This document shows, in pieces, positions 1 to 13,821 of a stretch of DNA of 27,404 bases. Source of the DNA: an uncultured archaeon (GTDB lineage Archaea > Asgardarchaeota > Jordiarchaeia > Jordiarchaeales > Jordiarchaeaceae); contig CAZECW010000049.1 of the NCBI GenBank assembly GCA_964510585.1, positions 1 through 27,404 of the forward strand. The letters are read 5' to 3'. Under the pieces are notes generated by a model. That model was not told where the DNA came from and did not search any database. It was given only the letters and a program-made list of their open reading frames with translations. Both the position numbers and the translations under genes were made by a program. Within the stretch, counting starts at the first letter, position 1. Every line of letters starts with the position of its first letter.

Positions 1-36
1 GAGATAGACCTGGTTTCGAGAATGTCTGTATTCCAT
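1..36 (-). CDS. tnpA: IS200/IS605-family Y1 (HUH) transposase TnpA, N-terminal 12 codons only (runs off the window edge)
   Basis: Reverse complement of 1-36 reads ATG GAA TAC AGA CAT TCT CGA AAC CAG GTC TAT CTC = MEYRHSRNQVYL. This resembles the typical TnpA start (..R/H-x-x-VY-x-x-x-YH-x-VW) and lies just inside an IS608-like left end. The catalytic motifs are outside the window. Confidence 0.7.
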   Translation of the reverse strand, partial: MEYRHSRNQVYL

Positions 37-136
37 CTATTGATAACCATAAATTTATCAATACACCAGCCTATAAACTTTTTTTGGCGATTCATCCCCA
101 CGACTTGAAGTCGGGGGCTTTCTCGCCAACGGTTTT
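1..136 (-). mobile_element. Left end of a probably autonomous IS200/IS605 (IS608-like) element, truncated by the window edge
   Basis: Minus strand: TTAC (140-137) | aaaaccgttggcgag AAAG cccccgac-ttcaa-gtcgtgggg atgaatcgcca. This is the IS608 layout: TTAC cleavage site, AAAG guide and subterminal hairpin. It is nearly identical to 7129-7182 and followed by a tnpA-like start. Confidence 0.85.
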
Positions 137-140
137 GTAA

Positions 141-2579: not shown

Positions 2580-2699
2580 ATTTTTTAGACACTCTCCACA
2601 AAAGTCGGCAGCTTTCTCGCCAATGATTCAGTAAATAACTTAAATAGGATTCCGAACAATTGCTTTAGTGTATGTTACAGAAATATTGGAGAAGTTTAA

Positions 2700-7031: not shown

Positions 7032-7132
7032 TCTAAAACAAAAAATACACATAAAAAATTTCAACAAAAAATAAAAACTATTTGGGAGAGAGTTTTTCAG
7101 AAAAAAGAGTAGGGGATTTCCCTGTTTCTTAC

Positions 7133-7403
7133 AAAACCTTGGCGAGAAAGCCCCCGACTTTAGTCGTGGGGATGAATCGCCAGAAAATTTATTTGAAAGT
7201 ATGGTATATAAATAGTTGTTGGTAGCTGAAGGGTTTGGCTTGGGCTTAAGAGGCTAAACAAGACGCAGCCCCCATGAGGGTGCCAACATAGACGCCGTTC
7301 CCATGAGGGAAGGGCGTGTTAACTGGGTGATGGCACACCCATTGCTTCGAAGGCGATGAGCCAGAAGCAAGAATCTCCCGACTTTAGTCGCGGAGAGTGT
7401 CAA
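7133..7403 (+). mobile_element. Non-autonomous IS200/IS605 (IS608-like) element, 271 bp, copy A
   Basis: TTAC (7129-7132) | ...AAAG cccccgac-ttta-gtcgtgggg (left end) ... GAAT ctcccgac-ttta-gtcgcggag agtg TCAA (7400-7403, right end). The AAAG/TTAC and GAAT/TCAA guide/cleavage pairs match IS608. There is no internal ORF, and it is homologous over its full length to 13534-13804. Confidence 0.9.
7215..7403 (+). ncRNA. Putative TnpB-type omegaRNA (right-end RNA) scaffold; predicted guide continues into 7404-7423
   Basis: Multiple stems: TGTTGG 7217-7222 with CCAACA 7283-7288; ACGCC-G-TTCCC/GGGAA-G-GGCGT; TGGGTG/CACCCA 7324-7341; terminal right-end hairpin. Two of these stems covary in the second copy. 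The position abutting the right end is where TnpB omegaRNAs lie. The 5' end is uncertain. Confidence 0.6.
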
Positions 7404-12629: not shown

Positions 12630-13289
12630 GTGTCGGCCCCCAGACAAACGTACAAAATCGTCGTATGCGGCGACGGAAGTGTAGGCAAAACCAGCCTCAT
12701 TTTGAAATACACCCAAAACACCTTCAACGAAAATTATATGGCGACTGTGGGTGCAAATTTCGCCACAAAAAAACTAACAATAAACGGTGTAGAAATTATT
12801 TCCCAGTATTGGGACATGGGCGGCCAGCCACAGTTTAAGTTTATACGCCAGAACTTTTATCGGGGCGCCAGAGGCATTATTTACGTTTACGACGTCACAA
12901 GGCGTGAAACCTTCATAAACCTCGAAAAATGGATACAAGAAGTAAACCAGGTTCTTAGTAACGTTCCCTGCATACTAATAGGTAATAAAATTGATCTTCC
13001 CCGACAAGTTGATGAGAGCGAGGCGAGAGAATACAGTTCCAAGATTAATGCTAAATACTTCGAAACCAGCGTAGCTCAAAACATTAATGTTCAAGAAAGC
13101 ATGGATAGCATAAACCACATCATATCTGAAAAGCAAGAAAGCCTGAATAAATCAATCACCTCGCCCAAAACATTATCCCCTACAGACAACCTATTTAAAC
13201 CTCCAATTAGATGCCCAGTTGCATCTACCTCCTCTAAATACCCCCTACCTGAATCAGTTTTCCCCGAAGCTTATAGAATTAGAATATAA
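12630..13289 (+). CDS. Rab-like small GTPase (Ras superfamily) with C-terminal extension
   Basis: G1 GDGSVGKT, G2 TVG, G3 WDMGGQ, G4 NKID, G5 ETSV; Rab-type FYRGA and VYDVT segments; TATA-like TTTAAATA at 12569-12576. Confidence 0.9.
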   Translation: MSAPRQTYKIVVCGDGSVGKTSLILKYTQNTFNENYMATVGANFATKKLTINGVEIISQYWDMGGQPQFKFIRQNFYRGARGIIYVYDVTRRETFINLEKWIQEVNQVLSNVPCILIGNKIDLPRQVDESEAREYSSKINAKYFETSVAQNINVQESMDSINHIISEKQESLNKSITSPKTLSPTDNLFKPPIRCPVASTSSKYPLPESVFPEAYRIRI

Positions 13290-13506
13290 ACCAAAATGGG
13301 TATCGAATAATACAACGTTCTCAAAAAAGGTGGAAACAAAGCCCTTCAATACCTTCTCGACCTTTTCCCCCCTCTCCTTCTGATTCAAAAATATTAACTA
13401 TTTCTAACCCAACCTTTTCTATATTCGAAGCGGCTCTTTTTGTAGGGTGCAAAAATTATAAATCGCCCCTACTCAGAGCCTTAAACCCCTCCTCCTGTTG
13501 GTTTTC

Positions 13507-13519
13507 GAAAGTTTAATAT
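13507..13519 (+). promoter_or_regulatory. Putative original BRE/TATA of the macrodomain gene, separated from it by the 271-bp insertion
   Basis: GAAAG-TTTAATAT. In the reconstructed empty site it lies about 31 nt upstream of a TG initiator (G13814), followed by SD GAGGTG and ATG 13831. Confidence 0.45.
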
Positions 13520-13533
13520 CTAACTTTTATTCA

Positions 13534-13804
13534 TTGGCGCTTCCCTCGACTAAAGTTGGGGGATTCTTGCTTCTGGCTCATCACCTCCAAAGCAACGGGT
13601 GTGCCACCACCCGGTTTAGCACGCCCTTCCCTCAGGGAACGGCGTCTATGTCGGCACCCTTATGGGGGCTGCGTCTTGTCTAGCCCTTTTGAGTCAAGCC
13701 AAACCCTTTAGCCACCGACAACTATTAATATACCCTAACTTAAAATAGGCTATTTTGGCGATTTATCCCCACGACTTAGTCGGGGGCTTTCTCGACAAGG
13801 TTCA
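13534..13804 (-). mobile_element. Non-autonomous IS200/IS605 (IS608-like) element, 271 bp, copy B (putative omegaRNA cassette)
   Basis: Minus strand: TTAC (13808-13805) | tgaaccttgtcgag AAAG cccccgac-taa-gtcgtgggg ... GAAT cccccaac-ttta-gtcgaggg aagcg CCAA. Same length as and colinear with 7133-7403, roughly 80-85% identical by eye. Confidence 0.88.
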
Positions 13805-13821
13805 GTAAATGCTGTTTTGAG

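Follow-up and report, generated by a model that had tools for sequence, protein, structure and literature searches.

Copy B, the more diverged of two 271-nt gene-less elements in the 27,404-nt stretch of archaeal DNA analysed here (the window), is probably an older, diverged and likely immobile copy from a separate sublineage of its transposon family, with RNA stems that were selected while the lineage was still mobile and ends that mutated in place after insertion.

On this account, which draws on homology with IS608 and TnpB systems, a Y1 transposase acting in trans would move the element as single-stranded DNA, and a TnpB acting in trans could load its RNA. Copy B would derive from a separate sublineage and not have diverged from its partner, copy A, at its present site. 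The stems of that sublineage would have taken up compensated and wobble substitutions during its replicating phase, which would place the selection on mobile master copies. The insertion of copy B after a TTAC, into the stretch that separates a TATA-like box from the ribosome-binding site of a macro-domain gene, would postdate the split of its host from three sister species, and uncompensated mutations would have followed in its right-end hairpin and tail. These end mutations probably stop TnpA from excising it; both the immobility and the order of events are inferred.

Copies A and B within a family with IS608-type ends

The two copies (Table 1) are ~85% identical. A sequence-only reading of the window had described B as exactly 271 nt and colinear with A, which is accurate apart from two 1-nt deletions and two 1-nt insertions that cancel to a net change of zero. 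B is the single diverged member, with 84-86% identity to every other copy. Its differences were correctly described as mostly transitions: against the family consensus there are 28 transitions and 10 transversions, with a ratio of 24:3 in the RNA region versus 4:7 in the left end plus linker. Copy A is a typical young main-family member, which in the RNA region differs from the consensus by one substitution and a 4-nt deletion. Under the RNA covariance model (R1), copy A scored 232.7 bits and copy B (13534-13725) 181 bits. No protein gene was found inside the 271 nt of copy B, which is therefore gene-less, as a PATE is.

Table 1. Positions of copies A and B, their parts and related features in the window
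Feature	Position	Strand	Description
Left-end fragment	1-140	-	Left end (TTAC 140-137) and start of a tnpA-like frame, cut by the contig edge
Micro-element	2585-2630	-	46 nt; left-end leader (..GGCGAGAAAG), one right-end-like hairpin and a GTGTC(T)AA tail
Copy A	7133-7403	+	271 nt; TTAC at 7129-7132; ends TCAA
Open frame overlapping copy B	13498-13683		Mechanical, 61 aa; the only one overlapping copy B
Putative guide of copy B	13514-13533	-	20 nt 3' of copy B; former TATA-like region of the macro-domain gene promoter
Copy B	13804-13534	-	271 nt; gene-less IS200/IS605 mini-element (PATE)
Copy B, right end	13534-13566	-	GAAT 13566-13563; imperfect hairpin 13562-13542; tail GCGCCAA
Copy B, scaffold	13534-13725	-	Omega-RNA-like, nine helices
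Copy B, linker	13726-13754	-	A+T-rich; TATA-like boxes CTATTTTAAG and GTATATTAATAG
Copy B, left end	13755-13804	-	AAAG 13790-13787, immediately 5' of imperfect hairpin 13786-13767
TTAC of copy B	13808-13805	-	Target and left cleavage tetranucleotide, 5' of copy B

The genome to which the window belongs (G000; 3.78 Mb in 217 contigs) holds ~30 assembled full copies and ~100 partial copies of the element. A genome profile search returned 144 matches, most of them at contig ends, and most partial copies stop at a contig end after ~140 nt, so that the family itself breaks the assembly. Thirty full copies, A and B included, were aligned with their flanks. All except B were 88-100% identical to A; homology started directly after TTAC in 29 of the 30 and stopped at GAGTGTCAA in every copy except B.

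The two ends have a constant layout: on the left TTAC, about 18 nt, AAAG and an imperfect hairpin; on the right GAAT, an imperfect hairpin and a short tail ending in TCAA. Both hairpins are subterminal and imperfect, with one bulged base each (CCCCCGACT..AGTCGTGGGG on the left and CTCCCGACT..AGTCGCGGAG on the right), and the right one covaries, for example GACT/AGTC versus GGCT/AGCC and GAAT/ATTC. Y1_Tnp genes adjoin the same kind of left end on three contigs (C7, C162 and C169), and the PATE left end is 82-95% identical to the left ends that adjoin or lead into Y1_Tnp genes (those three and window positions 1-140). The match of the PATE right end to gene-bearing elements was weaker: 93% over 42 nt for the element on contig C81, and 77% for the C8 type. 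Taken together, the IS608-type ends, the Y1 genes and the tnpB 3'-end homology described below identify A and B, on sequence grounds, as PATEs of the IS608-like IS200/IS605 family that carry a TnpB omega-RNA scaffold. Such a PATE would be mobilised by TnpA as single-stranded DNA, as its ~130 dispersed copies at different TTAC sites suggest. The left end at window positions 1-140 is 91% identical to that of the PATE, and the full-length tnpA-bearing element to which it belongs is a candidate autonomous partner.

Related elements of other kinds were also seen. The micro-element of Table 1 follows a TTAC (2634-2631), just 3' of the stop of a DUF4147/MOFRL gene; three sister species (G001, G003 and G004) carry it at the corresponding locus with 91-93% identity, and it thus predates their split. 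A second gene-less subfamily of ~315 nt (C107:6920-7233, C58:28236-28557, C32:13043-13365 and C21:240-398) shares the RNA core and the TTAC/TCAA ends but has a much longer variable hairpin. A third is present as contig-end halves only (C94, C97, C124, C134 and C35) and is 86% identical to A; considered as possible kin of B, it was rejected, being 77% identical to B. Among the genes of the window are those for MCM, for a GINS-type protein (Sld5 domain) and, adjoining B, for a Ras/Rab-like small GTPase (12630-13289, forward strand). MCM, the GINS-type protein and the Ras-family GTPase point to an archaeal host and fit one of Asgard type.

The RNA fold of the family and the paired changes of copy B

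The right two-thirds of the mini-element are homologous to the 3' ends of the C8-type tnpB and of a frame on C81, and the mini-element keeps remnants of tnpB 3' coding sequence: the last ~190 nt of the PATE represent the end of the parent element and overlap the tnpB 3' end in full-length relatives. On C8 the TnpB zinc-ribbon (TNB) domain (68-259) is overlapped and followed by an RNA-model match (233-366), and on C81 an RNA-model match lies at the 3' end of a 557-aa TnpA-TnpB open frame. The latter frame (C81:5072-6745, reverse strand; locus L034:1315-2988) has Y1_Tnp, OrfB_IS605 and a Cas12f1-like TNB domain, looks like a TnpA-TnpB fusion, and runs without a stop across the guide-RNA region as far as the TCAA that closes its element.

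The main family alone varies too little to settle the fold, with only 4 pairs changing on both sides. The partly different middle fold that RNAalifold gave for this low-diversity alignment (covariation term -0.13) was dropped in favour of single-sequence hairpins that covary across classes. A covariance model with nine helices, built on the main family, retrieved 47 sequences from several classes, 46 of them distinct. In the alignment of the 46, which favours the structure because it was fitted to the model, 95.4% of cells pair versus 81.6% in shuffles, and 39 of 61 pairs change on both sides; for the latter, shuffles gave 24.6 +/- 2.4 and sliding the 3' partners no more than 17. In the hairpin that precedes a 25-nt core, all ten pairs change on both sides, and the differences between classes are also plain in alignments that were not fitted to the model. 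Covariation across element classes backs all nine helices and thus indicates that selection on an RNA fold, or on a top-strand fold, is real for the family. The earlier proposal of selection on an RNA fold therefore stands at the level of the mobile family, but not as a sign that the B locus was domesticated.

The 25-nt core AACYGGGTGRTGGCACACCCRTTGC also occurs in the second gene-less subfamily and in full-length elements of G000. The core and the GAGTGTCAA end were both found in a MAG of another archaeal phylum, the Methanomethylicota MAG WYZ-LMO10 (loci L077-L080), and in many metagenome contigs (loci L081-L159), with the core in at least 79 of these. Within the phylum of the window, the RNA model matched 22 of 151 genomes. 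The guide-RNA class is thus widespread among archaea and has possibly been exchanged between them. No Rfam family matched anywhere in the window at E-values up to 1. By analogy with TnpB systems, the omega-RNA of the PATE would be transcribed, processed and bound by TnpB, and would guide cleavage next to the TAM. The linker of B may act as an internal RNA promoter, derived from the region that follows the left end of tnpA-bearing elements: the left-end matches adjoining tnpA extend to element positions 59-87, and other gene-less classes have A+T-rich TATA-like stretches at a similar position in a by-eye comparison.

Two stems of copy B had been described as changed on both strands and still paired, and both changes are real. 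In helix H1, TGTTGG/CCAACA of copy A (7217-7222, 7283-7288) becomes TGTCGG/CCGACA, pair 13717/13652 going from U-A to C-G; in H6, TGGGTG/CACCCA (7324-7329, 7336-7341) becomes CGGGTG/CACCCG at pair 13613/13596. A third double change, which the sequence-only reading had missed, lies in H9, the right-end hairpin, where pair 13561/13543 goes from U-A to C-G.

All three are states of other elements. The H1 and H9 pairs are C-G both in B and in L134, a complete PATE with intact ends from a related organism; it lies on a metagenome contig of 427 kb that shares synteny with G000 at an identity of only 73-78%. L134 is 81% identical to B and shares 11 of its non-consensus states, including both sides of H1, both sides of H9 and the bulge base. 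In the other classes H1 is a U-A pair wherever the alignment covers it, and H9 is U-A for the most part. At H6, two main-family copies (C12, which is the same locus as L149, and C116) have C-G and three more (C19, C65 and C186) the half-changed C.A; a compensatory path from U-A through C.A to C-G can thus be seen at one pair within a replicating mini-transposon family. Since the double changes are common to other elements, inheritance from the mobile lineage is their most likely source, and they are not a sign of domestication. The fallback offered with the first description, namely that the covariation predates insertion and stems from separate parental lineages, is therefore the best-supported reading, two of the doubles being shared with L134 and the third with C12 and C116.

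In-place neutral decay would account for B differently: an ordinary main-family copy would have inserted soon after speciation, and its doubles would be chance or parallel hits, helped by transition bias. To some extent the doubles allow this. When the 27 substitutions of B in the RNA region were placed at random on the consensus, pair-keeping doubles averaged 0.86 and reached three or more in 4.4% of trials (P = 0.044), under a structure derived partly from the same sequences. Yet parallel two-sided hits would be needed on just those pairs that are changed in other elements, and 8.3 broken pairs were expected versus 3 in B (P = 0.0036; for L134, P = 0.0005). The doubles of B alone are thus marginally above chance, while its deficit of broken pairs is clearer, and we regard neutral decay at the present site as unlikely. 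For private substitutions, in which changes from before and after insertion are mixed, B has 2 broken pairs versus 4.8 expected (P = 0.05), and the deficit in L134 is comparable (P = 0.06).

All four one-sided stem changes of B leave G-U wobbles in the sense strand, a pattern consistent with an RNA, or top-strand DNA, that is read from the left towards the right end; in addition, B folds better than shuffled sequence (z = -3.5). Both observations would also favour a domesticated or immobilised guide locus, in which selection would keep the omega-RNA of B in place and a TnpB, or a regulator derived from one, would use it in trans for a function of the host or a selfish one, and mutated ends that should hinder excision would suit such a locus as well. 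Against this, the double changes are inherited and not local. Some selection on the RNA after insertion would nonetheless also yield the few broken pairs and the transition excess of B.

Ends, kinship and insertion site of copy B

The right cleavage site of B, reported as CCAA for TCAA, is CCAA (13537-13534), whereas all other aligned full copies of the genome have TCAA; a CCAA end was found in one other element, L122. For the single new mismatch reported in the right-end hairpin we found two, 13557 G>A and 13542 G>A. In the tail, GTG has become GCG in addition to TCAA>CCAA. The left outer stem has the G>T mismatch that had been noticed (TTGTCGA, not TTGGCGA), and the first two bases of B are TG, not AA. 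The resulting TGAA start was considered as a marker of the B lineage and rejected, as the only other case (window position 2630, in the micro-element) is a private A>T, the sister species having AGAA or AAAA there.

B departs from the superfamily at 6 of 51 conserved positions, more than any other sequence in the set. Of these, two form the compensated H6 pair; the other four (13537, 13539, 13542 and 13557) have no compensating change and fall without exception within the last 25 nt, at positions that are T, T, G and G in 42-43 of 44 other-class sequences. Among the changes of B, these four are the strongest candidates for decay that came after insertion, and they probably impair cleavage by TnpA. 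As 7.8% of 51 positions, they are also near the overall private rate of B, which is what neutral decay would give. Outside the last 25 nt, at ~31 conserved positions, B has zero uncompensated changes (estimated P ~0.08). The reported decay of transposition signals is thus plausible from the four changes, but its contrast with a preserved RNA is not statistically established at that P value.

Such a contrast would be expected of an immobilised omega-RNA cassette kept for a local role, either as a promoter of the neighbouring macro-domain gene or as a fixed TnpB guide that cuts B-free alleles in the population (a locus-bound homing drive), with selection holding the RNA body while the TnpA signals erode. 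The zero count outside the last 25 nt likewise speaks for a domesticated guide locus. However, the density of private changes in B and in L134 is alike region by region: 9.6% and 7.7% in the left end, 15.6% and 25% in the linker, 8.3% and 9.6% in the RNA body, and 8.6% in both right ends. The main family ranks the regions in the same order. With matching densities, erosion of the ends alongside a preserved RNA does not set B apart statistically from ordinary lineages of the family, and the constraint pattern of B equals that of an element whose ends are intact. Moreover, the positions just 5' of the guide, near-invariant in 46 other sequences, are mutated in B. Retention of the cassette for a local role is a reading to which we give little credence.

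No close relative or master of B was found above 86% identity in G000 (blastn and nhmmer), nor was a close relative found in 40 related genomes (DNA search), in species-representative genomes (pattern search), in 150 other genomes of the phylum (RNA model search) or among the metagenome matches listed (at least 79 contigs, pattern search). The separate sublineage is therefore deduced from the states that B has in common with L134 and a few main-family copies. A tree holding B and L134 together had a log-likelihood 5.4 units above that of the tree from the free search, although this grouping may owe something to long-branch attraction. In the free tree, whose resolution is poor, B branched beside C12 (76/66 support) within the polytomy at the base of the main family, and a grouping of B with C6 was not rejected in the tree comparison. 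Both the position in the free tree and the 4-nt CTCC deletion, which is common to B, A and C6, suit an ordinary main-family copy decaying in place. Parallel change towards the more stable C-G pair may also have contributed to the shared states.

The insertion itself can be traced precisely. B is absent in the three sister species (G004, G001 and G003), where the flanks are joined at TTAC (TTAA in G003): the empty sites read TTTTAC followed directly by GGAATAAAA in G004 and by TAAATAAAA in G001, and the joined flanks are CAGCATTTTAC and GGAATAAAAT. In comparison with the three sister genomes, B is a clean insertion after TTAC, with no bases gained or lost and no target-site duplication. Thus B inserted in the G000 lineage and both of its borders are exact. 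Divergence from G000 at fourfold sites was 0.13-0.20 for G001 and G004 and 0.21-0.30 for G003 (~75 sites per gene); as G003 is the furthest from G000, one gain is more parsimonious than repeated precise excisions. Half of the figure for G001 and G004 gives ~0.07-0.11 neutral changes per site in G000 since the split, while the terminal branch of B is 0.22, so that part of its divergence should predate the insertion; the argument is a rough one, given ~75 fourfold sites per gene, and it runs against decay of an ordinary copy at the present site.

On one side of B lies a TATA-like box, AAATTTTATT, and on the other the macro-domain gene with its GAGGTG ribosome-binding site (ATG 13831). In the sister species this box lies ~40 nt upstream of the gene, and B splits the two. 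The gene itself is intact, with 91-94% identity to its orthologues. B could therefore have been retained as the promoter of this gene, on its left-end side, with selection acting on that function and not on the RNA; a G>A at 13763, private to B, creates GATTTATC on the gene-facing strand. Yet read-through or another start could equally serve the gene, the preserved RNA stems would be left unexplained, and the archaeal promoter calls, including that at 13763, were made by eye. We hold promoter exaptation to be quite improbable.

The guide of B had no other match in the genome with up to 2 mismatches over 20 nt, and near-matches of 16 nt were not preceded by TTAC. For the guide of copy A, the only trans candidate found was a 16-nt near-match on C4, with unrelated flanks, which was rejected as a chance match. 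No TnpB gene lies within the window. Several lines of evidence thus argue against the immobilised or domesticated guide locus that had been suggested for B: i) the orthologous site is empty in the sister species; ii) the doubles are shared with other elements; iii) the pattern of change resembles that of L134; iv) the guide has no second target in the genome. This part of the sequence-only reading was not supported, and of the explanations weighed here domestication is the one we find most improbable. Inheritance from a mobile sublineage, followed by mutation of the ends in place, remains the explanation we prefer.

Comparison with known systems

In domesticated TnpB systems of the TldR type, the guide RNA is kept after mobility is lost. 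B differs from them in having no TnpB-like gene adjoining it, in a locus that is not conserved across species, and in a guide without a host target. If B had truly been selected after the loss of mobility, it would represent an early step from a selfish guide RNA to one used by the host, which the evidence does not favour. The analysis yielded three by-products: a well-supported nine-helix fold for a class of archaeal TnpB guide RNAs, the compensatory path seen at the H6 pair, and exact empty sites that date an insertion.

The fold resembles the omega-RNA (reRNA) of ISDra2-type TnpB and of stand-alone OMEGA loci in that, in full-length relatives, the scaffold extends from the tnpB 3' end, which it overlaps, as far as the right end, and the guide would likewise be the 3' flank. 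It differs in having no Rfam match and in being defined here by covariation only.

In IS608 the cleavage sites are TTAC and TCAA and the left guide is AAAG (PMC3201880). The present family resembles IS608 (ISHp608, from Helicobacter pylori) in TTAC, TCAA, AAAG 5' of the left hairpin, imperfect subterminal hairpins and the lack of target duplication. It differs from IS608 in that TCAA lies ~8 nt, and not 10 nt, from the foot of the right hairpin, and in consisting of gene-less archaeal derivatives whose cleavage is predicted.

PATEs of the IS200/IS605 family in Geobacillus stearothermophilus often encode omega-RNAs, which the TnpB of other elements would have to use in trans (Meers et al. 2023, PMC10055086). 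The elements described here are like them in being gene-less and in sharing their ends with autonomous elements, and unlike them in their Asgard-group archaeal host, in their very high copy number (~30 full and ~100 partial) and in being known from sequence alone. Omega-RNA-carrying PATEs have already been described (PMC10055086), and B is an ordinary diverged copy of such an element, marked by selection on its mobile ancestors.
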